In this document: piece after piece, positions 1 to 48,758 of the stretch
Layout of the letters: each line of letters opens with the position of its first letter
Position numbering within the stretch: position 1 is the stretch's first letter
DNA from: a virus
Lineage: Duplodnaviria > Heunggongvirae > Uroviricota > Caudoviricetes
Length of the DNA stretch: 50,109 bases
Reading direction: 5' to 3' (one strand)
Virus record (IMG/VR): IMGVR_UViG_2740892016_000006
Span: 1 to 50,109 of that record
Notes under the pieces: generated by a model
Told to the model about the DNA's origin: nothing
The model's database searches: none
The model's input: only the letters and a program-made list of their open reading frames with translations
Made by a program: the position numbers and the translations under genes

Positions 1-104
1 ATGCCAGCGTTAATTAATCCAGGCAATGATCAGTTTTCGGTTATAAATTTCTTGCCTCACCAGGAATGCGCGGGATATAGTTTAAAGGTTGCCGCAAAAT
101 CGGC

Positions 105-380
105 AGCCGGGCGTAGGAACCCGTGTTATCTGAAGGCGATACTACACGCGCTAGGCGTGTTTTTTTGTGTCGCAGCTTTGACTCACCTAAAATTTATGGT
201 GTGGTGGCTGATTGTATTTTTTTATTTTTTACGCCACATCATCAGAATTATGGTAGTCCAGGCGGGGCAGCTTTCGGGCTGGCCGGTATCCTTCAGAGCC
301 GGTATTCCTACCCCCGTCTGGGCTACCACCCATGAGCGTAGGAACTCCGGTGGTAGCGTTACCCGCTATCTGAAGGAGGT
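105..380 (+). promoter_or_regulatory. P4-type RNA immunity region: two direct repeats (about 111-136 and 334-378, sharing GCGTAGGAAC and TATCTGAAGG) flanking a partially complementary segment (about 283-315)
   Basis: Seen in sequence: direct repeats plus a segment whose ends (CCTTCAGA, TTCCTAC) are reverse complements of the repeat ends; the second repeat overlaps the SD of the next ORF, matching the seqA/seqB/seqC logic of P4 cI RNA immunity. Confidence 0.45.
283..315 (+). ncRNA. Candidate CI-RNA-like element (seqB analogue); boundaries approximate
   Basis: Segment complementary to both flanking direct repeats; inferred by analogy with P4, no structure computed. Confidence 0.3.
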
Positions 381-387
381 TGCCATT

Positions 388-591
388 ATGGCTACAGTCC
401 CTGCTTTATCTCACCCTGAATTTACCTTTGTCTTTCTGGCTGTCCGCCGTACAGACCGTGATGCCCGTCCACGCCCTGTGCGTGTAATCGCAGAATGCGA
501 GCATGCTGCACGCCTTAAACTTGCCACTGAATTTATCCTGAGCTTTGCTGCCCGTATCCCTGTGAAAAGAGCCGGGGAGGTGGTTGCATGA
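388..591 (+). CDS. Small protein in the kil position of the satellite left operon (68 aa)
   Basis: ATG at 388 preceded by GAAGGAGG (372-379) that is overlapped by the second immunity repeat; in frame with the long track ORF 1..591, whose upstream part is judged non-coding. Confidence 0.4.
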   Translation: MATVPALSHPEFTFVFLAVRRTDRDARPRPVRVIAECEHAARLKLATEFILSFAARIPVKRAGEVVA

Positions 592-824: not shown

Positions 825-1227
825 TAATCAAAATTTAAAGGCGCATGCTTTACGAACAGCAGTCTTACGCTACTACATTGCTGATGCATTCATTTCCTTA
901 ATGGTGCGTGTTCATAATGAACCTGTTTATATTGAAGATGGCGAACGAATAGAACTCTCCCACGAAAAAGTGGTGAGTAATATTATTTACCATATTGAAA
1001 TGCCGTGGGTGAATGAGTTTGGGGCTGATGCTGGTTGCATACTGGCCGCAGAGAAACTGGAAAAAATGCTTAAACCAGGCTTTATGTCAGAAAATATTCG
1101 CCTGTCAGTTTTTGGTGTCACAGAGATGCGTGAGGTTTACCGGGATATTATTTTCGGAGCACCTGATGGCGAACTACCCGAAGGTTTTGAATTTGTGAAG
1201 CCGGAAGGTCAGGAGGTGCTGCTGTGA
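817..1227 (+). CDS. Hypothetical satellite protein preceding the primase (136 aa; epsilon/orf151 position)
   Basis: ORF translationally coupled to the alpha gene (overlap at 1224-1227). Confidence 0.5.
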   Translation: MNNNQNLKAHALRTAVLRYYIADAFISLMVRVHNEPVYIEDGERIELSHEKVVSNIIYHIEMPWVNEFGADAGCILAAEKLEKMLKPGFMSENIRLSVFGVTEMREVYRDIIFGAPDGELPEGFEFVKPEGQEVLL

Positions 1228-3911
1228 AAACACCGTCTGTATCCACGATTTCCGGAGCTGCAATTGGGCGCTGGCCTTATATCCTGTCAGCATTAGGTAT
1301 TAAAGTACCGTCCGCAGGACATCATGGGGCTTGCCCTGCCTGTGGTGGAAAAGATCGTTTTCGACTGGACGATAAAGCGGGGCGAGGGACGTGGTTTTGT
1401 AATCAGTGCGGTCATGGCGATGGTCTTGATCTGGTTCGTCTGGTGACAGGAAGAAAGATAAAAGAAGTCGCCGGGATGGTATCTGAGGCGCTTGCATTAC
1501 CAGAAATACAGGAGAAGCCCGCATTGCCAGCCAGGAAAAAGGCCGCAGGAAAAGAAGCGGGCGCGGAGCGATATACCAGACTCAGACAGCAGTCCTGCAA
1601 TGGTGAGCCGGTCTATCTGACAAATAAGAGCTTACACGGGTATTCACTTCCCTTGCTGTCACAGCCTTTGAATCTGGCCGGAATAACATTTTCCACCGGT
1701 TCATTACTGCTGCCTTTGACGGATATTTCCGGGAATATTACTGGTGGCCAGCTTATCAATCCTGACGGGGATAAAAGTCTGCTGCCCGGTAGCCAGCTGT
1801 CTGGCGCATTCATTGCCCTGACCGATATACCCGCTGAAACACCTGAACAGGTGATTATCACTGAGGGTTTTGCCACGGCGCTTACCGTCAGTCTGCTGAC
1901 TGAAGGATGGATCGTGGCGGCTGTCGCTGCCACCAATTTACTGAAGGTGACGGAGCAGATCCGAAAACGCTGGCCGGAAACCCGGATCATTCTGGCCGGA
2001 GATAATGATCTGGCTGACGGCAAAGAAAACACCGGGCGTATTCAGGCAGAGAAAGCCGCCAAAGCGGTGGATGGCTGGGTAACGCTCCCTCCGGTACGCC
2101 ATAAGGCTGACTGGGATGATTATCGGCAGGAAGTGGGGAAAGAACGGGCGAGAGATGCCTTTCGTGAAGAAATGACGCTGCATGGCAAAGGGCAGACCCG
2201 TTTACCAGAAGGGTTCCGGCTGACAAAAGAATATTTGTGGTACGACAAGCTGGTTAATAAGTCTGATGGTGATACAGAGATACGTAATATCAAAATTTGC
2301 AGTCCGTTGCGGGTGACGGCAATCACCAGTGATGCTGATGGAAGTAATTACGGGCGTTTGCTGGAATGGGAAGATACCAACGGAAACAGCCGTAAATGGG
2401 CAATGCCGATGGAGATGCTGGGCGGTAGCGGGGAAGAACTGCGCCGCGTTCTGCTGGTTAACGGGCTTTCTTACATCAACATTAACGGCATGGCCAGAGC
2501 ATTCCTGATGGAATATATCTCGCTGTGTAAACCGGACAGAAAAGTAACCTGTGTGAATAAAACTGGCTGGCACGGCGGGGTTTACGTTCTCCAGGATGAA
2601 GTGATAGGGCGCGAAGCCCAGTCAGTCATCTTACAAACATCGAGTGTGCAGGGGCGTGATTTTCGTGTCAGCGGCACATCAGAGGGCTGGCGTGAAAATA
2701 TAGGCCGTTATTGCATAAAGAATGCCCGTCTTGCCTTTGCGGTGAGTCTGGCATTTGCTGCCCCCCTTCTGAAACTGGTTGGTATCGGCGGTGGAGGTTA
2801 TCACCTCAAAGGGGAATCCACAGACGGTAAAACCACGACGATGAAAGTGGCTGCATCAGTATGTGGTGGAACAGATTTCTGGCATACGTGGCGGGCGACG
2901 GGGAATGCCTTAGAAGGAACGGCGAGCCGCCGCAATGATGCCACGCTGATGCTGGATGAAATCCGGGAGGTTGACGGCAGGGAGGCGGGAAATATCGCTT
3001 ATATGCTGGCTAACGGGCAGGGCAAAGCCAGAGCCAGAACAGATGGTTCGGTAAGGGAAACCAACCGCTGGAATCTGTTGTTTCTGTCTACCGGGGAACT
3101 GTCACTGGTAGAGCATGCGGCAAGCGCCGGGGAACGTACGTATGCCGGGGTTGAGGTCAGAATGATCCAGATCCCAAGCGATTCGGGCAAGTATGGCGTG
3201 TTTGAAGAACTTCATGGCTTCAGTAGCGGGAAAACCCTGGCTGAGCATCTTGAGCAGCACGTAGCGCATTATCATGGTGCACCATTCCGCGACTGGCTGT
3301 ATTGCCTGACCGCTGATCTGCCGGAACTGACCAGTCAGGCGAAAGCCTTATTGAAAGAGTATACCCGAAGGCTGACGCCGGAAAATGCCGGGAATCAGGT
3401 TGGCCGGGCTGTTACCCGTTTTGCTCTGGTTGCGATGGCCGGGGAGCTGGCCACAAAAGCGGGCATCACAGGATGGCCGGAGGGAGAGGCCTTTCGTGCC
3501 GCTCAAAGCTGTCTGGCTGCATGGATGGCTGACCGGGGCCATACAGCTAATCAGGAAGATAAAGCGGCACTTGAACAGGTTCGGGACTTCATGACGCGTA
3601 ATCAGTTCAGTCGGTTTGCTGACTGGAATGACGACAGGAACCGGCCTGTTTCAATGATGGGATTCAGAAAAGTCGATAAAGGAGACAACGTGACAGAGCC
3701 GGTTGTGACGTTCTACGTTCTCCCGTCAGGCTGGAAGGAGATCTGTAAAGGATTTGACTCGCGTAAGGTGGCCAGGTTGTGTGTGGACGCGGGCTGGCTG
3801 AAACCCGGTGAAGATGGCCGGACGCAAAACAGCATTCGCCTGCCAGAAATAGGGCTTAAACGTGTGTACCAGTTCAATACACAGGTACTGGGAAGCGCTG
3901 AACCTGAGTGA
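1224..3911 (+). CDS. P4 alpha-type primase-helicase (895 aa)
   Basis: GTG start after AGGAGG SD; N-terminal zinc ribbon CPACGG...CNQCGH, TOPRIM-like ILAGDND, D5-type NTPase with GESTDGKTT Walker A. Confidence 0.9.
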   Translation: MKTPSVSTISGAAIGRWPYILSALGIKVPSAGHHGACPACGGKDRFRLDDKAGRGTWFCNQCGHGDGLDLVRLVTGRKIKEVAGMVSEALALPEIQEKPALPARKKAAGKEAGAERYTRLRQQSCNGEPVYLTNKSLHGYSLPLLSQPLNLAGITFSTGSLLLPLTDISGNITGGQLINPDGDKSLLPGSQLSGAFIALTDIPAETPEQVIITEGFATALTVSLLTEGWIVAAVAATNLLKVTEQIRKRWPETRIILAGDNDLADGKENTGRIQAEKAAKAVDGWVTLPPVRHKADWDDYRQEVGKERARDAFREEMTLHGKGQTRLPEGFRLTKEYLWYDKLVNKSDGDTEIRNIKICSPLRVTAITSDADGSNYGRLLEWEDTNGNSRKWAMPMEMLGGSGEELRRVLLVNGLSYININGMARAFLMEYISLCKPDRKVTCVNKTGWHGGVYVLQDEVIGREAQSVILQTSSVQGRDFRVSGTSEGWRENIGRYCIKNARLAFAVSLAFAAPLLKLVGIGGGGYHLKGESTDGKTTTMKVAASVCGGTDFWHTWRATGNALEGTASRRNDATLMLDEIREVDGREAGNIAYMLANGQGKARARTDGSVRETNRWNLLFLSTGELSLVEHAASAGERTYAGVEVRMIQIPSDSGKYGVFEELHGFSSGKTLAEHLEQHVAHYHGAPFRDWLYCLTADLPELTSQAKALLKEYTRRLTPENAGNQVGRAVTRFALVAMAGELATKAGITGWPEGEAFRAAQSCLAAWMADRGHTANQEDKAALEQVRDFMTRNQFSRFADWNDDRNRPVSMMGFRKVDKGDNVTEPVVTFYVLPSGWKEICKGFDSRKVARLCVDAGWLKPGEDGRTQNSIRLPEIGLKRVYQFNTQVLGSAEPE

Positions 3912-5145: not shown

Positions 5146-6027
5146 ATGAGTCATAATAAAAAGGAATATGCTAAATTTTTCCGTCGCCCCATTTTTTCAT
5201 CCTTAGCAAAAGGTAAGGATATTTCGGATTTATTTGGGAGTTTTGATTCTTACTGCTATGAAACACTGTTTTCAAACAATGATAATAATGAACATGAGAT
5301 TTCACTAAGGGATTTATTTACATCATTATATGATTTTTTGCGTCTGAATTATAGAAATGAATATGTTTATAAGACAGCACTTGTCAATAAAATAATATTC
5401 GGTAAGCACAGCCCAAAAACAAGTTCGTCGTCCATAGAGTTACCAATTAAAAACTCTATAGTGGATGTTGCGGTGTTTAATGGTACGTCTACAGCTTACG
5501 AGATTAAGACAGAGTATGATTCACCAAAAAGGTTGATTACTCAAGCCCCTGATTATTTGGATGTTTTTGATAAAGTGTATATAGTTACACATCCAGAGTA
5601 TGCAAGTAAATATTGTGCTTTAAATCTCCCCAGAGTGGGAGTTATGGTTTTGAATAAAAAAGATCAATTGAGTGTCATTAAGGAGGCAGATTCAAATATT
5701 GATTATATTAAAAGTGACAGCTTGTTTTCAGTTCTTAGAAAGGAAGAGTTCTTAGCTATAATAGAAGATTACACTTCAACTAAAATAAATATGCCTAACG
5801 GATTGGTTTATGAATATTGTAAAGAGATATTCATGCAGATGCCATTAAACATAGCAAATAAATACTTTATCTCTGCTATGAAAAAAAGATGTAACGATAA
5901 AGTTTTTTTGGATTATATTTATTCTCTTCCAGCATGTTTACGTGTTTTAGGTTATGCAACACCATTATCAAGAAAGCAAAAAGAATTCATCATGAATTTG
6001 ATGGATGTAAAAATTAAAATTTGTTGA
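5146..6027 (+). CDS. Hypothetical protein A of AT-rich cargo operon (293 aa); possible PD-(D/E)xK-like nuclease motif
   Basis: Long ORF in visibly AT-rich DNA with Asn/Lys/Ile/Tyr-rich composition; motif IVDVAVF...AYEIKTEYD resembles the D...ExK catalytic strands of restriction-endonuclease-fold nucleases (weak). Confidence 0.7.
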   Translation: MSHNKKEYAKFFRRPIFSSLAKGKDISDLFGSFDSYCYETLFSNNDNNEHEISLRDLFTSLYDFLRLNYRNEYVYKTALVNKIIFGKHSPKTSSSSIELPIKNSIVDVAVFNGTSTAYEIKTEYDSPKRLITQAPDYLDVFDKVYIVTHPEYASKYCALNLPRVGVMVLNKKDQLSVIKEADSNIDYIKSDSLFSVLRKEEFLAIIEDYTSTKINMPNGLVYEYCKEIFMQMPLNIANKYFISAMKKRCNDKVFLDYIYSLPACLRVLGYATPLSRKQKEFIMNLMDVKIKIC

Positions 6028-6048
6028 TATCCTCAGGAGTTGTAAGTT

Positions 6049-6999
6049 ATGTATAGCCCATATTTGTATGCGAGAAGTACAGAGTTATTATGCCTTAGGG
6101 ACCTCGTTGCGAAGGGAGTTAGCCTAAATGGTCTGCTACCAATTTTAGAACCAATTAACGTCAATACGAGAAATTTATTAACATGTTTAAATGTTTGGAA
6201 TTCTGACATAATTGTTATCCTTAATCCTTATCAGGAAGATTTTTCTTCACACAATAACGTCTTAACTTTAAATCAAAATTTATCAAGTGTATTAACAAAT
6301 AAAAATAATATCATCTCTGGATATCTTATTCAGCCCAATACAACGATTAATGATATTAATAATTGGTTGAATGCTAACTTAAATAGACGAGTTGCACTTC
6401 TATATGATAATCCATCATTATCCAACTCTGATATTCAGTTGTTGGCGACAAATCAATTGATTAGTTATCATGTTGTTTTAAATAATAAAATGCTTCCTAA
6501 TCAGTGCGCTCTTCTTCCTTTGTCGAAGTTAATTATTATTAGCGATAACTTTAGAAAGTTAGCAAAAAATGCTGATTATAATGGGCCGGAACTTTTCACG
6601 CACGCACATCAATTCGTGGGACAAAATTACTTAGGATTTGGCGATTATACAATTACTGGCCAGGTACTAGATCTTGGAGGTGGTCAACCTTCTGCTGTTG
6701 CCGCACATTTGGTGTTCAAGAATTTACAAGCGAATACAGTTTGGATTCGTCATTTTGTATCAAGCAACACGCAACGAGGAAGTTCAAATGTTACTGCAAA
6801 ATTTTTAGATGTTTCAGATCAAATTACAAATCTTGTTCCCCAACATCCAACCCAGTTTGGCAGCAACATTGGTCTTAACTATTATTATTACAATAGTCAA
6901 CCAACTGTAAGGCATTTCCCTGGGTTGCCAAAAAACAAACAGTATCAAATTACTCACCATATTTGTTTCATGCTGGATTTAATAGCAGGTCGTATTTAA
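6049..6999 (+). CDS. Hypothetical protein B of AT-rich cargo operon (316 aa)
   Basis: ATG at 6049 with AGGAG 10 nt upstream, 21 nt after gene A stop; Asn/Ser/Leu-rich, no motif I recognise; 3' end overlaps the integrase 3' end (6979-6999). Confidence 0.7.
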   Translation: MYSPYLYARSTELLCLRDLVAKGVSLNGLLPILEPINVNTRNLLTCLNVWNSDIIVILNPYQEDFSSHNNVLTLNQNLSSVLTNKNNIISGYLIQPNTTINDINNWLNANLNRRVALLYDNPSLSNSDIQLLATNQLISYHVVLNNKMLPNQCALLPLSKLIIISDNFRKLAKNADYNGPELFTHAHQFVGQNYLGFGDYTITGQVLDLGGGQPSAVAAHLVFKNLQANTVWIRHFVSSNTQRGSSNVTAKFLDVSDQITNLVPQHPTQFGSNIGLNYYYYNSQPTVRHFPGLPKNKQYQITHHICFMLDLIAGRI

Positions 7000-8154
7000 T
7001 AAGCTAGCGTACCATTCCATCATTACTTGTCGATCTTTAATATATTGCGCATGATTGTAAGTACCTCGAATAGAGTTCTTATCAACATGCGCAAGCTGCA
7101 TTTCAATCCAGGCACTTTCAAACCCATGCTCATGCAAGATGGTGCTCATGGTATGCCTGAAACCGTGACCCGTTAACCGACCGTGATAACCCAGTAGTTT
7201 TATCACTTTGTTGATGCTGGCTTCGCTCATTGGTTTACTGACGTCATTCCGGCCAGGGAAAACGAGGCTGTAATTCCCTGTTATTTCTTGCAGCTTTTTC
7301 AGGATATTGATCGCCTGAGTTGATAACGGAACCAGATGGGGGCGGCGTTTCTTCATCCGTTCTTTGGGGATCTCCCATAAGGCATTATCTAAATCAAACT
7401 CAGCCCATTCCGCTGCACGTAGTTCAATTGTTCGCACGCCTGTTAGCATCAACAGCTGCGTGGCGTATTTGGTAACTAAACTGCCCTGATAGTTATCCAG
7501 AGCATTAACGAACTCGGGCAACTCGCTTTCAGTCAGGAACGGGAAGTGTTGGGTTTTAGGTTTGTTGAGTGCGATAGCTAAATCGGGTGCAAAATTATAC
7601 TTTGCTCTACCAGTGGCAACAGCATAACGAAGCACTTCACCACAGCGGCGGCGGATCTTACTGGTTTGCTCTAGCGCACCTCTTTTCTCTATTTTTTGCA
7701 GGACGGTTAGCAGTTCTAATGGTTCAATCTGCTCAATTGGGCGCTGGCCGATAAAAGGAAAAATATCCTTTTCCATACAATTGAGAACCTCTTTTGCATA
7801 ACCCTCTGACCAGGTGGCTTTTTTCGATGAGTGCCATTCTCTGGCCACAGACTCAAAGCTGTTCTCATGCGCGAACTGCAAAGCAATCTTATCTGCTTTT
7901 CTGGCTTCACTTGGGTTTATCCCGTTGGCTAACATCGAACGCGCTTCATCACGTTTGGTACGTGCCTGTGCCAACGACACATCGCCATATACGCCAAAGG
8001 AAATCATCTTAGGCTTACCTGCAAAGCGATAGCGAAAACGCCAGCCTTTACTGCCCGCTGTGTCGATCAGGAGTGATAGCCCCATACCATCGTTAAGCGT
8101 ATAGGGTTTGTCCTTCGGTTTTGCTCTTTTTATTTGGATGTCAGATAGCAGCAT
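6979..8154 (-). CDS. P4-family tyrosine integrase (about 391 aa; start taken at the second Met of the track ORF)
   Basis: N-terminal KPKDKPY...WRFRYRFAGK arm-binding motif, C-terminal HGFRH...LAHVD...RGTYNHAQY catalytic region; homologous to the IntS-like integrase at 48952-50109. Confidence 0.9.
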   Translation of the reverse strand: MLLSDIQIKRAKPKDKPYTLNDGMGLSLLIDTAGSKGWRFRYRFAGKPKMISFGVYGDVSLAQARTKRDEARSMLANGINPSEARKADKIALQFAHENSFESVAREWHSSKKATWSEGYAKEVLNCMEKDIFPFIGQRPIEQIEPLELLTVLQKIEKRGALEQTSKIRRRCGEVLRYAVATGRAKYNFAPDLAIALNKPKTQHFPFLTESELPEFVNALDNYQGSLVTKYATQLLMLTGVRTIELRAAEWAEFDLDNALWEIPKERMKKRRPHLVPLSTQAINILKKLQEITGNYSLVFPGRNDVSKPMSEASINKVIKLLGYHGRLTGHGFRHTMSTILHEHGFESAWIEMQLAHVDKNSIRGTYNHAQYIKDRQVMMEWYASLLNTTCY

Positions 8155-8314
8155 GTGTATAGAAAAAAGATCGAACTCAGTTATACACAATGTTATACGC
8201 AAAGATGTATAGATTCCATTAGAAATAATGGTACTTTGCTGGACGAGTATAAGGAGATGATATCAGTTAAAACAGTGAGTTATGGAATTAATTGAACTTA
8301 GTGAGAAGTGTTCA

Positions 8315-8329
8315 TGGTGTCCCCTGCAG
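8315..8329 (-). other. Attachment-site core: TGGTGTCCCCTGCAG, reverse complement of the 3' acceptor end of tRNA-Arg (argW) as I recall it
   Basis: Sits between the satellite integrase start (8154) and torI (8403); argW sequence is from memory and must be verified. Confidence 0.5.
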
Positions 8330-8402
8330 ACATCTACTTGAAGCGGCAGGGGATTGATTGGAATGGTGTTTTTTAGATGTGAAAAAAATTTTACCCGCTA
8401 TT

Positions 8403-8603
8403 TTACCCATTGGCGCGGCTTAAGAGCTTATTTTTGAATTCACAATGGTCACGATATAACCATCTTGCTCGTCCGTGGATAACTTTGGCTTTAGGCAGGT
8501 CGCCGGACTTAATCCGGTCATAGATGAAGGTCTTACCGAAGCCAGTATCGGCCATGATGAATTTCAAATCAACCAGGGAATCAGGCTGTAGTTCGTGTTG
8601 CAT
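8403..8603 (-). CDS. torI: TorI-type excisionase / recombination directionality factor (66 aa, AlpA-like)
   Basis: Sequence MQHELQPDSLVDLKFIMADTGFGKTFIYDRIKSGDLPKAKVIHGRARWLYRDHCEFKNKLL matches the recalled E. coli KplE1 TorI. Confidence 0.8.
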   Translation of the reverse strand: MQHELQPDSLVDLKFIMADTGFGKTFIYDRIKSGDLPKAKVIHGRARWLYRDHCEFKNKLLSRANG

Positions 8604-8645
8604 GAGTGCTATCTCCGAATAGGGAATCGAACCTGCAAATCAGGC

Positions 8646-8668
8646 AATAAAAAACCGCCATCAGGCGG
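8646..8668 (-). terminator. Rho-independent terminator on the minus strand between early-left genes and torI
   Basis: Minus strand reads AACCGCC-TGAT-GGCGG followed by TTTTTTT. Confidence 0.65.
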
Positions 8669-8900
8669 CTTGGTGTTCTTTCAGTTCTTCAATTCGAATA
8701 TTGGTTACGTCTGCATGTGCTATCTGCGCCCATAGCATCCAGTGGTCATAGCAGTCGTTGATGTTCTCTGCTTCGATAACTCTGTTGAATGGCTCTCCAT
8801 TCCATTCACCTGTGACTAGGAAGTGCATTTATCATCTCCATAAAACAAAACCCGCCGTAGCGAGTTCAGATAAAAGAAATCCCCGCGAGTGCGAGGATTG

Positions 8901-9260
8901 TTATTCATTGCCGATATTCACCTTTATCGCGAACACCTTTACCGGTTTATCGCCGAAGTGCTGATGTGTGATTGTCTTGATTTCATATCCGTCATACGGG
9001 ACGTCAATTCTGCGGCTGGAATCGTCGCGCTTCGGATATCCCTTTGTGATAATCAGGCGGTCATACTCCCGGAACATAATTCGCTTATTCCAGTAGTCAT
9101 TACACAGGCGATACTCTTCCGTTTTCTCTCCACGAATCATGGCATCGAAGTATTCACCTTTGACGGAAAGTTGCAGGTTAGCCACGGTTAACCTCCTGCG
9201 CCGTTTTGATGATTGCTGCCAGACAATTCTTGCAAGGAACAAGCAGCGCTTCCTGCTCAA
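8901..9260 (-). CDS. Hypothetical early-left protein (start uncertain, possibly internal)
   Basis: ORF in leftward operon; the N-terminal Arg-rich stretch may be non-coding. Confidence 0.4.
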   Translation of the reverse strand: MSRKRCLFLARIVWQQSSKRRRRLTVANLQLSVKGEYFDAMIRGEKTEEYRLCNDYWNKRIMFREYDRLIITKGYPKRDDSSRRIDVPYDGYEIKTITHQHFGDKPVKVFAIKVNIGNE

Positions 9261-45134: not shown

Positions 45135-45334
45135 GTAAAGAATGTTGTTTCTGCGGCATTAGCGAATCAGACGCTGATCAAACATACATTTACTCTAAAG
45201 AAACAGGTCGGATGCTGTGTAGTGACTGCGTGTTGGACATCATAAGATACAAGCATCTTGGATGTTCTGCCAGCATTAGCAATATAGGTGAAGTATATGA
45301 AGGGAAAGATATAACTGATAGAGCAGAAAGTTGA
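45131..45334 (+). CDS. Small Cys-rich (zinc-ribbon-like) protein inserted between arc and ant (67 aa)
   Basis: CCFCG...CSDC pattern; overlaps arc stop. Confidence 0.4.
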   Translation: MSKECCFCGISESDADQTYIYSKETGRMLCSDCVLDIIRYKHLGCSASISNIGEVYEGKDITDRAES

Positions 45335-45396
45335 AGCCCCAACTGCGGTAACAGTCAGGACTTCGATATCAACAAATCGGATTAGGAAATATTGAC

Positions 45397-46275
45397 ATGA
45401 AAAGTATAGCAAAGGCACAAAACGATTTCACCATCTTCAAATTCGGCGACAGTGAAATCCGCGTCATCAACAAATGCGGTGAGCCGTGGTTTGTAGCAAA
45501 AGATGTTTGTGATGCTTTAACCCTGACTAACTCACGCAAGGCGCTTACTGCACTTGATGACGATGAAAAGGGAGTAACTTTAAGTTACACCCTTGGTGGT
45601 GAGCAGAATCTAAGCATTGTTAGCGAATCAGGTATGTATACATTGGTTCTGCGCTGCCGCGATGCTGTCAATAAAGGTTCGGTCCCGCACAAATTCCGCA
45701 AGTGGGTAACAGCAGAAGTTCTACCTTCAATTCGCAAACATGGCGAGTATGTGAAAGGCAAGAAAACCACTGTTGAGGAAAGAACGCCGCTACGCGATGC
45801 AGTAAACATGCTGGTAGGAAAGAAAGGACTTCGCTATGACGATGCATACAATATGGTTCATCAGCGTTTTGGTATTGACAGCATTGATGAACTTTCAATT
45901 GAACAAATCCCGCTGGCCGTAGAGTACATCCACAGGGTAGTGCTTGAAGGTGAGTTCATTGGCAAACAAGAGAAGAAAACCAACGAGCTTTCTGCAAAAG
46001 AAGCAAACAGTCTTGTATGGTTATGGGATTATGCCAACCGCTCACAGGCATTGTTCCGCGAACTGTATCCGGCATTAAAACAAATTCAATCGAACTATTC
46101 CGGCAGATGTCATGACTGCGGTTATGAGTTCTCCCGTATTATCGATATAGCGAGAGACGTTTTAATCAATCACACACGAGATGTTGATATCAATGAGCCA
46201 GACGGACCAACGAATCTTTCCGCATGGATGAGACTTAAGAATAAAGAATTACCTCCTTCAGTACATAACTACTGA
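45397..46275 (+). CDS. ant: Antirepressor Ant (Bro-N domain)
   Basis: N-terminal [28 protein letters not shown] Bro-N motif; position after arc. Confidence 0.8.
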
Positions 46276-46376: not shown

Positions 46377-48758
46377 ATGACAGATTCAATAAATGCCAAT
46401 GTTGTAGTGAGTATGCCTTCGCAACTCTTCACTATGGCGCGTTCTTTTAAAGCGGTTGCCAATGGCAAAATTTATATCGGTAAAATTGACACTGACCCGG
46501 TAAACCCTGAAAACCAGATTCAGGTTTATGTGGAGAACGAAGATGGCTCTCATGTTCCTGTTTCGCAACCAATCATCATTAACGCTGCTGGATATCCGGT
46601 ATATAACGGACAGATTGCCAAATTCGTTACCGTGCAAGGCCATTCTATGGCTGTATATGATGCTTACGGTGCTCAGCAGTTCTATTTTCCTAATGTACTG
46701 AAGTATGATCCTGATCAGCTGCGGAACCAATTAGAAGACATTGATGGCGCTAAGAAGTATCCTGAGTTGCAAATGGCTCGATGGAGAGATAATGGTGATG
46801 TTCGTGGATTTGGTGCTGTTGAAGGTGGTGTTGTATTATGTGATGAATCGTTTAAAGACGCAGAAAGAACTGGTATCGATGTATATGTTCCAGAGGGAAG
46901 GTGGCGATTATCAACTCCTATGATCTTGGGTCAGAAGGGAAAATATTATGGTCCAGGATTACTTATTTTTGATAATGCAGAGTGGTGGAGGAGAGGAGGC
47001 TCATCAGGTTCTGAATCTATAAATGAGCGTTATACATTGTTCTATAATTATAATGATAAAGGAGATGTGACATTAACTTATGACGGGATACCACAGAGTT
47101 TTACCTGGGTTGATGACAGGACAATAGAAGCTCCTGGTAGCTCAGTTAATGTAAGTGTCAGAATTAATATTGCCAATGGTTATCTGAAACTTGGGCCAGT
47201 GGCTGAATTTATTCGATCTTACAATCTTTGTGCCAATGGTGGTGGTGGTGAAAAACTAACCCCGGAGTTACCAGATCCAACAACAGCGCCAAAGGGTTAC
47301 GATAATACAGCATTTGGCCCGCGAGCGTTACAGGATCTGACCGATGGTGTTAACAATACTGCCATTGGGTCAAAATCATTGATGAGTAATATTTCAGGAA
47401 ATAATAATACCGGAGTTGGCTTCCTGACTTTGTATCGATGTACTGGAACAGGAAACACTGCTGTAGGTTCTGTTGCTGGCGAGTGGCTAACAACCGGGAG
47501 CTATAACTCATTCTTCGGACTTGGTGCAGGAGAAAAAGTTAAGGGCGGTAGATATAACGTTGGAGTTGGCTTTGAGGCCATGGCTGAGGCTCCAGATACT
47601 ATTTATACAGTTGCAGTAGGATATCGGGCGAATGGAAATCCTGGAGATTACTCACAGTCTAATAGTGTATACGTAGGCTCTTTTGCCGGAGACTTCTCTA
47701 TTGGTTCAAATAACACCATGGTTGGCTACAGAGCGGGAAACTGTCTTGGTGCTGCGGAGGCAGCAGGTACAGGGACTGGGCATGATAATGTTGGCATTGG
47801 AATGTTCGCAATGCGCAAGAATCTTGCAGGGAATGAAAGCGTTGTTATTGGTGCTGGAGCGGCAACCGAGTCAACAATTACAGATAATGTTGTTGTAATT
47901 GGTTATGGTGCATGCGGTGAAACTCAAACGCTAGGTTCATTTACCGTTTCTATTGGTCACATGGCACTTATAGCAGCAACGGGTGATAATAATGTTGCGG
48001 TTGGACAGCAGGCATTAAAAGGAACAACATCGGGAAGCAGTAACGTTGCAATTGGGTCTGGCTCTCTTGTCACAAATACAACCGGCGCATTAAACACGGC
48101 TATTGGACATAATTCAGGTAGATTAACTCAATCAGGGGAAAGCACATCATCACTTACCAACACAACAACTGTTGGCAATGATGCAAGGGTGTCTGGAAGT
48201 AATCAGGTGCAGCTTGGCAATTCTTCCACAACGACATATGTATATGGAACTGTGCAAAACAGATCTGATGCGCGTGATAAAACAGATATCCGAGATACTT
48301 TGCTGGGGATTGAATTTATCCTTGGACTTCGCCCTGTCGATGGTCGCTGGGATATGCGTGATGATTATATTGATGTTATTGAAAAAACAAGAATTGTACC
48401 AAAAAAAGTAGAACGAGATGTTGATGGAATTACTATATCAGCTATTGAGAATGTCGAAGAAAAATATCTTGAAGTAGTGCAGAAAACTCCTGACGGCAGT
48501 AAAAAACGTCAACGATACCATCACTGGTTTATTGCACAGGACGTATTGAAACTGTGTGAGAAATTAGGTGTTGAGTTCGGTGGGCTACAGCATCACTTGA
48601 AAAATGGTGGGGATGATGTTTACTCACTTGGTTACGATGAATTCATCCCACCTATTGTTAAATCAATTCAGCAATGCTGGGAGAGAATTGATAATATAGA
48701 AAGACGTATCGAAGAACTAGAGATGACATTAAAAAAGAATAACTTAAATAAAATATGA
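46377..48758 (+). CDS. Tailspike/tail fibre: P22-type N-terminal head-binding domain, Gly-rich repeat central region, C-terminal intramolecular-chaperone-like domain
   Basis: N-terminus [12 protein letters not shown]...[22 protein letters not shown] matches P22 tailspike head-binding domain; C-terminal [11 protein letters not shown] (Ser630/Lys634) resembles S74 autoproteolytic chaperone motif. Confidence 0.85.

Follow-up and report, generated by a model that had tools for sequence, protein, structure and literature searches.

The first 591 nucleotides of the DNA studied here appear to be the immunity region of a P4-like satellite prophage of Escherichia coli; judged from the sequence, we assign this reading a probability of about 0.85. 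The DNA is a stretch of 50,109 nucleotides from a tailed-phage record (IMG/VR record IMGVR_UViG_2740892016_000006, positions 1 to 50,109), which is called the window in the following. A promoter, seqA, a terminator, the CI RNA, seqC and kil follow one another in this order ahead of a replication operon, and the arrangement is collinear with that of P4. The initial annotation had proposed an RNA immunity module with the seqA/seqB/seqC architecture of P4. This proposal was borne out by matches to the Rfam families C4 and isrK above their gathering scores, and it is also backed by the same matches in P4 itself, by base-by-base collinearity with P4, by a Kil homologue and by the co-variation of loops and targets. 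The element belongs to a type of system that is already known, in which the replication genes of the satellite are kept off by a tRNA-shaped RNA that binds two sites of the transcript from which it comes. It looks like an intact RNA-based immunity switch with its own specificity in a common P4-like satellite, and this specificity matters for predicting mutual exclusion among satellites and the timing of their mobilisation. The main value of the analysis lies in a corrected reading of the long open reading frame (ORF) that runs through the region, and in the family-wide data on co-variation. The features of the region are as follows.

1-591, + strand: eta-like long ORF of 196 aa, spanning the promoter, both RNA elements and kil
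52-81, + strand: sigma-70-like promoter TTGCCT-18-TATAGT, counterpart of the P4 promoter PLE, with the same hexamers in the window and in P4
88-166, + strand: leader RNA of the isrK / P4 seqA type, from the Rfam isrK match and the predicted fold
113-119, + strand: target box a1 (GUAGGAA) in a hairpin loop, exact complement of 305-311
129-136, + strand: target box b1 (UCUGAAGG), exact complement of 290-297
144-166, + strand: intrinsic terminator at the position of P4 t1, with a 6-bp stem and a run of seven T, conserved in P4
246-333, + strand: gene of a C4 / P4 CI-type antisense RNA (Rfam C4), with a closing stem 251-267/312-328 and hairpins at 268-281 and 282-303
289-297, + strand: recognition segment b' (UCCUUCAGA), forming the loop of the hairpin at 282-303
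305-311, + strand: recognition segment a' (UUCCUAC), in the unpaired junction that leads into the 3' strand of the closing stem
338-344, + strand: target box a2 (GUAGGAA), complement of a' and co-varying with it
349-357, + strand: middle of seqC (GGUGGUAGC), between a2 and b2, pairing with 322-330 ("helix X")
369-377, + strand: target box b2 (UCUGAAGGA), overlapping a Shine-Dalgarno sequence
388-591, + strand: kil / icd-like gene of 67 aa, the 3' third of the eta-like ORF, with an NCBIfam phage_ICD_like match of 68.1 bits

The C4/CI RNA is cut out of its transcript by RNase P in P4 and P1. The covariance-model search that had been suggested as a check found Rfam C4 (RF01695, clan CL00128) at 246-333 of the window with 81.1 bits, well over the gathering score of 45, at an E-value of 2e-14 and over model positions 1-87 of 87. 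The 17-bp closing stem of this RNA encloses two hairpins, and the minimum free energy (MFE) of the fold is -47.8 kcal/mol with a z-score of -5.3. The MFE structure is the same as the Rfam consensus and places one recognition segment in a hairpin loop and the other in the 3' junction. Rfam C4 and isrK have been equated with the CI RNA and seqA of P4, respectively (PMC3632133; PMC4825925; PMC10111431). As a side observation, the closing stem carries an invariant G-C pair at its top and a CCA- or CCC-like tail.

Two-part targets flank the C4 gene on both sides, with exact complements of 7-9 nt at 113-119/129-136 and at 338-344/369-377. The direct repeats that had been described at 111-136 and 334-378 are real, and their coordinates can be refined to two pairs of exact 10-mers: GCGTAGGAAC at 111-120 and 336-345, and TATCTGAAGG at 127-136 and 367-376. 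The gap between the two 10-mers is 6 nt in the upstream copy and 21 nt in the downstream copy, and neither 10-mer recurs elsewhere within the 50-kb window. A partially complementary segment had been placed between the repeats at 283-315. Its complementarity turned out to be exact, with 289-297 matching 129-136 and 369-377 and with 305-311 matching 113-119 and 338-344; yet it is more than a stretch of complementary letters, namely the loop pair of the tRNA-like C4/CI RNA of about 80 nt. Pairing prediction yielded stable duplexes of 283-315 with both repeats, well beyond those obtained with shuffled targets. The predicted energy was -32.0 kcal/mol for the duplex with 105-140 (shuffled targets -17.8 ± 3.7 kcal/mol; 1 of 1000 shuffles as good) and -35.1 kcal/mol for that with 334-392 (shuffled targets -21.4 ± 3.8 kcal/mol; 2 of 1000 as good). 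A search of the window for further targets of the C4 loops gave only isolated 7-8-mers (at 45814, 35541 and 43642) and no paired a+b site. The pairing architecture is far beyond chance, as the Rfam models match at gathering level and the pairings co-vary in relatives.

Transcription from the promoter at 52-81 would start near 87-88; the Rfam isrK model begins at 88. The match to isrK (RF01394) extends over 88-165 with 68.9 bits (gathering score 50) and covers model positions 1-77 of 77. The leader consists of a hairpin at 88-107, a hairpin at 107-123 that carries a1 in its loop, box b1 and the intrinsic terminator. The Rfam family c4-a1b1 (RF03163) reached 43.8 bits at 75-127, just short of its gathering score of 46.7. 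P4 also falls short, with 44.1 bits, which means that the P4 subgroup is missed at this threshold. For the full-length leader, folding predicts a cis pairing between seqA and the C4 loops, and according to this model such pairing could compete with the action in trans. The fold recalls the alternative structures of the isrK locus of Gifsy-1.

The initial annotation had further assumed that the downstream repeat lies over the Shine-Dalgarno sequence of a small ORF starting at 388. This was confirmed for box b2, which covers six of the eight bases of the Shine-Dalgarno sequence GAAGGAGG (372-379) in front of the ATG at 388. The length of the ORF had been given as 68 aa and had to be corrected to 67 aa plus the stop codon (388-591). 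The product is 53% identical to P4 Kil. In relatives the diversity of kil at the three codon positions is 0.23/0.21/0.44, i.e. the third position is the most variable. GC skew is -0.13 to -0.27 across 361-560, which is the sole C-rich, G-poor stretch in the first 900 nt of the window, and from this composition the 5' half of kil may hold a Rho-loading site. A search for relatives of the 67-aa Kil in genome contigs produced 600 pattern matches, none of which was confirmed.

The first 600 bases of the window are identical in 448 of 5,426 complete E. coli genomes, and partial matches occur in 1,675 genomes. In the chromosome of an O25b:H4-ST131 strain the locus lies in an island of about 11 kb that adjoins a tRNA-Arg gene. 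The island contains, in this order, alpA, a 286-aa ORF, a P2-family capsid gene, the immunity region, a 78-aa ORF, genes for a DUF5375 protein, a DUF927/Toprim primase and an Ogr/Delta zinc-finger protein, sce7726/sce7725 and an integrase gene; the primase gene is located at 1224-3911 of the window. By its sequence, this gene set is that of a P4-like satellite.

Comparison with P4 showed the same order and spacing of the elements from the start of eta through kil. Few differences or none were seen at the start of the long ORF, in the two promoter hexamers, the first hairpin of the leader, the terminator, the core of C4, the Shine-Dalgarno sequence and the initial codons of kil, and P4 matches the same trio of Rfam models, with 74.9 bits for C4, 60.8 bits for isrK and the above-mentioned 44.1 bits for c4-a1b1. 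The differences between P4 and the window cluster in the a and b boxes, where they are compensatory at all three sites. The a boxes read GUAGGAA/UUCCUAC in the window and GUGAGAA/UUCUCAC in P4, and the b boxes UCUGAAGG/CCUUCAGA in the window and UUCACAGG/CCUGUGAA in P4. As each of the three sites departs from P4 in its recognition letters, the element of the window probably has a different immunity specificity and would be expected to be heteroimmune to P4. Other differences concern the spacer between terminator and C4, which is shorter in the window, and the start of eta, which overlaps the alpA/vis stop codon in P4, whereas that of the window comes after a P2-family capsid gene and is preceded by a Shine-Dalgarno sequence of its own. 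A primase operon lies downstream in both, but the primase of the window has 895 aa with a DUF927 domain as compared to 777 aa for the alpha protein of P4.

Relatives of the element were gathered by scanning viral contigs for the conserved DNA core of C4, which gave 120 loci with 53 combinations of b' and a' loops. Loops were then compared with their own and with foreign flanks in 51 distinct loop types from 119 loci, each type represented by a locus with full flanks. For the own b' loop, an exact complement of at least 7 nt was present upstream in 43 of the 51 types and downstream likewise in 43, as against 3-6% for the loops of other loci. The a' segment showed the same own-versus-foreign pattern. 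In an alignment of 79 sequences, which extended from C4 to the start of kil, 98.9% of the cells were paired when the C4 fold, a'-a2 and b'-b2 were taken together. Compensatory changes were seen in 26 of 43 pairs, including 8 of 9 in b'-b2 and 6 of 7 in a'-a2; the C4 stems were 99.7-100% paired with 12 compensatory pairs. In controls, structures that had been slid by 1-3 columns were only 34-49% paired, and no shuffle attained the observed values. Since loops and targets co-vary throughout the family, the antisense architecture is under selection. To judge from these alignments, the recognition boxes behave as interchangeable specificity modules, and the 51 specificity types represent a natural library of orthogonal pairs of antisense RNA and target.

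The long ORF at 1-591 was considered separately. RefSeq labels it as a "host cell division inhibitor Icd-like protein", while the initial annotation regarded it as probably mostly non-coding. Neither description fits entirely. The ORF is the counterpart of P4 eta: its first residues are MPAL, which in P4 Eta come after a run of ATG codons, and it is 47% identical to Eta across the RNA region. The translation of P4 eta and termination are said to have been dealt with by Forti et al. in 1999. The eta frame of P4, 197-199 aa long, opens ahead of PLE and has kil as its last part; only transcripts from the upstream late promoter are used for its translation, which keeps transcription from terminating (PMC10111431). 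The ORF of the window is served by a Shine-Dalgarno sequence of its own, AGAGG, which precedes the ATG at position 1 by 7 nt and is thus just beyond the window. In the matching genome the stop codon of the capsid gene is found 88 nt before this ATG and is followed by a terminator-like hairpin. The translational coupling to alpA that is a feature of P4 was not seen in the matching genome, where the upstream gene is the P2-family capsid gene.

In nearly all related loci with kil fused in-frame, the eta-like frame runs without a stop over at least the 345 nt that precede the kil ATG. Across 102 distinct loci, the number of stops per 390 nt upstream of kil was 1.36 in the kil frame versus 5.8 and 4.1 in the other two frames. 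Most of the stops in the kil frame come from a few loci with kil out of frame, and there the same frame relative to C4 is still open. The spacer from leader to C4 occurs in 13 lengths of 110-197 nt; ten of these belong to one class modulo 3, which comprises 65 of 68 distinct sequences. An in-frame ATG upstream of the promoter was present in 64 of 66 loci, often as a P4-like GCATGATGATG that overlaps the alpA stop codon. Codon-position diversity, on the other hand, was flat, with 0.26/0.22/0.18 in the leader, 0.29/0.34/0.33 in the spacer, 0.18/0.20/0.19 in C4 and 0.35/0.29/0.24 in seqC, so that there was no third-position excess anywhere upstream of kil in the relatives; constraint on amino acids was seen in the kil part alone. 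Thus, the view of a mostly non-coding ORF holds insofar as amino acids upstream of kil are unconstrained, but not with respect to the frame, which is kept open. A frame that is open and in register with an unconstrained peptide fits a role for the transit of ribosomes itself. By analogy with P4, it is probable that transcripts arriving from upstream serve for the translation of ORF 1-591 and that no conserved protein is encoded by it. Family-wide, the long ORF over the RNA genes may be selected only for being translatable, which would make it a clear case of selection for translation itself and not for its product. Protein-coding constraint across 1-387, which the initial annotation took as speaking against the RNA module, was thus found for the frame but not for the amino acids; it leaves the module standing because the RNA genes of P4 also sit within a translated ORF (PMC10111431).

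The ORF furthermore matches Pfam PF10554 (Phage_ASH, "Ash protein family") with residues 26-141 over the full model and with 111.7 bits at a cut-off of 26. The corresponding DNA (76-423) consists of the isrK-like leader, the C4 RNA and seqC, and purifying selection on amino acids was not detected there. In our reading of the sequences, the Phage_ASH "protein family" is mostly a reflection of conserved RNA genes that lie in an ORF whose frame stays open. This poses an annotation problem, as the 196-aa "Icd-like" CDS of RefSeq and the "Ash" family of Pfam largely describe RNA genes.

The P4 mechanism, with an RNA as the immunity factor, has been summarised (PMC10111431; PMC4825925; PMC3632133), and a mechanism for the window can be proposed in which processing, termination, the involvement of Rho and the immunity phenotype are modelled on P4 and P1. 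The promoter at 52-81 would be constitutive and transcribe the leader with a1/b1 and the intrinsic terminator. Transcripts that read through would contain the C4/CI RNA (246-333), which would be processed out and accumulate. On newly made transcripts b' (289-297) and a' (305-311) would then pair with a1/b1 in the leader and with a2/b2 downstream. Pairing in the leader would favour termination at 144-166, while pairing with a2/b2 would cover the Shine-Dalgarno sequence of kil and leave kil untranslated. The untranslated C-rich RNA might in turn allow Rho to halt transcription ahead of the replication genes. In P4, the premature termination that depends on CI involves t1, t4 and the Rho-dependent timm. 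When transcription comes from upstream, ribosomes would start at the ATG at position 1, translate the whole 196-aa ORF and override termination. The selected feature would be the act of translating ORF 1-591, and not the peptide.

Four other explanations were weighed against this mechanism. If the 196-aa "Ash/Icd-like" protein were functional and the repeats incidental, the region would be an ordinary protein gene, as the Phage_ASH score of 111.7 bits, the RefSeq CDS and the conserved frame might suggest. Yet the spacer values of 0.29/0.34/0.33 differ clearly from the 0.23/0.21/0.44 of kil, the stretch matched by Pfam is precisely that of the two Rfam RNAs, the RNA pairings co-vary strongly, and the immunity factor of P4 is an RNA (PMC4825925; PMC3632133; PMC10111431), which makes an ordinary protein gene hardly credible. 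A protein-only reading of ORF 1-591 was discarded on the basis of codon-position diversity. The module might also be a silent relic, i.e. look intact but no longer be used in a cryptic satellite. The identical sequence in 448 E. coli genomes may largely be due to clonal spread, and one genome carries IS1 inside the region. However, promoter, terminator, C4 fold, the four target boxes, the Shine-Dalgarno sequence, kil and the eta frame are all intact and match the family consensus, and the satellite retains its integrase, primase and Ogr/Delta genes, so that we consider a relic improbable. A system of the c4-icd-ant type of P1/P7 appears slightly more improbable still. There the C4 RNA would block only the translation of the icd-like ORF and, by translational or transcriptional coupling, control an antirepressor in an immunity based on a protein repressor. 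The likeness is considerable: the C4 RNA of P1/P7 belongs to the same Rfam family, has the same fold, and its two recognition segments find two-part targets to either side of the RNA gene; b2 extends over the ribosome-binding site of a small Icd-like ORF, as it does in the window. The gene controlled behind icd in P1 is reportedly an antirepressor, according to Citron and Schuster 1990. In many loci related to the window the gene after a2/b2 codes for a protein of 181-200 aa or of 77 aa that is not Kil-like, and in Stx phages related DNA lies under features annotated as "phage antirepressor Ant". In the window, though, no antirepressor gene follows; the next genes are the 78-aa ORF and those for the DUF5375 protein and the DUF927/Toprim primase, as in P4. 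The controlled genes would accordingly be satellite replication genes in place of the antirepressor of P1/P7, and promoter, leader, terminator and eta are collinear with P4.

The fourth explanation would add a layer to the P4-type mechanism and replace nothing in it. Here the leader (88-166) would act in trans as a positive regulator in the manner of IsrK, either by opening an inactive fold or by titrating the C4 RNA, and would switch on the ORF that overlaps C4 together with the downstream genes. The leader matches the isrK model end to end with its 68.9 bits, and as in the isrK-orf45-anrP locus of Salmonella Gifsy-1 the window has a short RNA defined by an intrinsic terminator, followed by a C4-like RNA inside a translated ORF of which the nucleotide rather than the amino-acid sequence is conserved. 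IsrK of Gifsy-1 arises when transcription ends at the equivalent terminator, and through alternative structures it activates the translation of orf45-anrP (PMC4825925). The pairing of seqA with the C4 loops in cis that is predicted for the full-length transcript is in line with such control, and IsrK-like elements of P4-like prophages are required in S. Typhi (PMC3632133). On the other hand, the genetic context of the window is a P4 satellite and not Gifsy. In Gifsy-1, IsrK activates an antirepressor operon in a lambdoid prophage, whereas net repression is expected in a P4-like satellite. Moreover, the Gifsy mechanism comes from one locus only, and the binding of Hfq and the trans-activation of downstream ORF translation are described for Gifsy-1 alone (PMC4825925). 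The data of the window fit activation and the P4 role of seqA as a termination target equally well. Taken together, we regard an additional IsrK-type control as rather unlikely and favor repression of the P4 type.

Finally, a further pairing emerged within the downstream half of the P4-type module. Positions 322-330 (GCUACCACC), where the C4 closing stem has its 3' strand and tail, can pair without a mismatch with 349-357 in the middle of seqC. In the 79 aligned sequences this helix X was paired in 98.6% of the cells, and 5 of its 9 pairs showed compensatory changes. Changes on both sides occurred in 86 cells as compared to 19 ± 9 in shuffles, a control that can be inflated by the relatedness of the sequences; slid controls were 12-49% paired. 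A local hairpin in seqC (352-358/364-370) had also been a candidate, but was rejected with 72.7% paired only, barely above the slid controls. Likewise rejected was a pairing of mid-seqC in trans with the mature C4 RNA, as the segments are not arranged in the way that another intermolecular helix beside a'-a2 would need. Because the segment order is unsuited to pairing in trans, a cis hairpin is the natural reading of helix X. It excludes the closing stem of C4, and with it the C4 fold that is competent for RNase P, and a2 would sit in its 18-nt loop. Tentatively, the model allows for helix X being a functional alternative fold of the unprocessed transcript, which would link how the antisense RNA matures to how accessible its own target is; we consider this possible, but less probable than not. 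If it were true, such coupling would exist in a family with members among both P4-like satellites and P1-like loci. Changes of the P4 type in the 3' strand have a Watson-Crick match in mid-seqC, but only a wobble in the 5' strand of the closing stem.

The 196-aa open frame at 1-591, annotated in RefSeq as an 'Icd-like' CDS, matches the Pfam entry PF10554 ('Ash protein family') with its residues 26-141, i.e. window positions 76-423. This stretch coincides exactly with the DNA for the isrK-like leader, the C4 RNA and seqC, the segment 3' of the C4 RNA that carries the target boxes a2 and b2. Within 76-423 no constraint at the amino-acid level was detectable. Thus, we concluded that both the PF10554 family and the 'Icd-like' CDS are largely an image of conserved RNA genes which lie within an open frame.

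An additional helix is formed by positions 322-330, i.e. the 3' strand of the C4 closing stem with its tail, and 349-357 in the middle of seqC. It is conserved and co-varying and is also found in P4 and P1-like loci; only one of the two, this helix or the C4 fold, can form at a time. In the spacer between the leader terminator and the C4 RNA, positions 194-207 (TTATGGTGTGGTGG) repeat the 5' end of the C4 RNA (TTATGGT, 248-254). This block is one of the few in the spacer that are unchanged between the window and P4; in P4, the old 'cI protein' annotation begins here.

At the downstream end of the module the first few codons 3' of the a2/b2 target are conserved across L007, L028, L030 and other viral-contig loci, which were found by their conserved C4 core. 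Typically these codons read MAT, often followed by V, T or I and then P or L. The same opening codons are present whichever protein comes after a2/b2, be it a Kil-like protein of 63-67 aa, a 77-aa protein or one of approximately 181-200 aa. The preservation of the start irrespective of the protein points to a recombination boundary of the module just inside the downstream gene.

Three further features concern the satellite and its neighbourhood:

L002 (the satellite locus) 7909-8913, outside the window and immediately 5' of its position 1, same strand as the immunity region: P2-family major capsid protein gene (Pfam Phage_cap_P2, 225.8 bits)
Window 5146-6999: two ORFs, sce7726 and sce7725 family proteins (RefSeq annotation)
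Window 45329-45395, minus strand: match to sar RNA, the P22 antisense RNA of the ant region (Rfam, 65.7 bits versus a gathering score of 43)

The satellite has a P2-family major capsid gene of its own, with a terminator-like hairpin 3' of it. In contrast, the P4 stretch compared has no annotated capsid gene, and the sid-delta-psu genes upstream of the P4 immunity region are on the opposite strand. The sce7726 and sce7725 ORFs are flanked by the Ogr/Delta gene on one side and the integrase on the other; at this position P4-like satellites are known to carry variable cargo, e.g. defence genes.

The match of the window to the ST131 reference locus, a P4-like island beside tRNA-Arg, ends at base 8329 within the 3' end of the tRNA gene. 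The sequences then diverge and just a 16-nt core (TGGTGTCCCCTGCAG-like, 8315-8330) is left, and ARAGORN found no tRNA in the whole window. This tRNA site thus appears to hold a second element, inserted in tandem directly after the integrase of the satellite. Downstream of the satellite there is probably a P22-like prophage: large ORFs (45397-46275, 46377-48758) adjoin the sar RNA match, and the plus strand from approximately 29 to 43 kb carries a long run of ORFs resembling a phage structural region.

Finally, in one E. coli genome (NZ_CP027534.1, 2433881-2435957; match H31) an IS1A cuts the otherwise identical 1.3-kb region into two pieces, so that the immunity and replication-control region is disrupted there.
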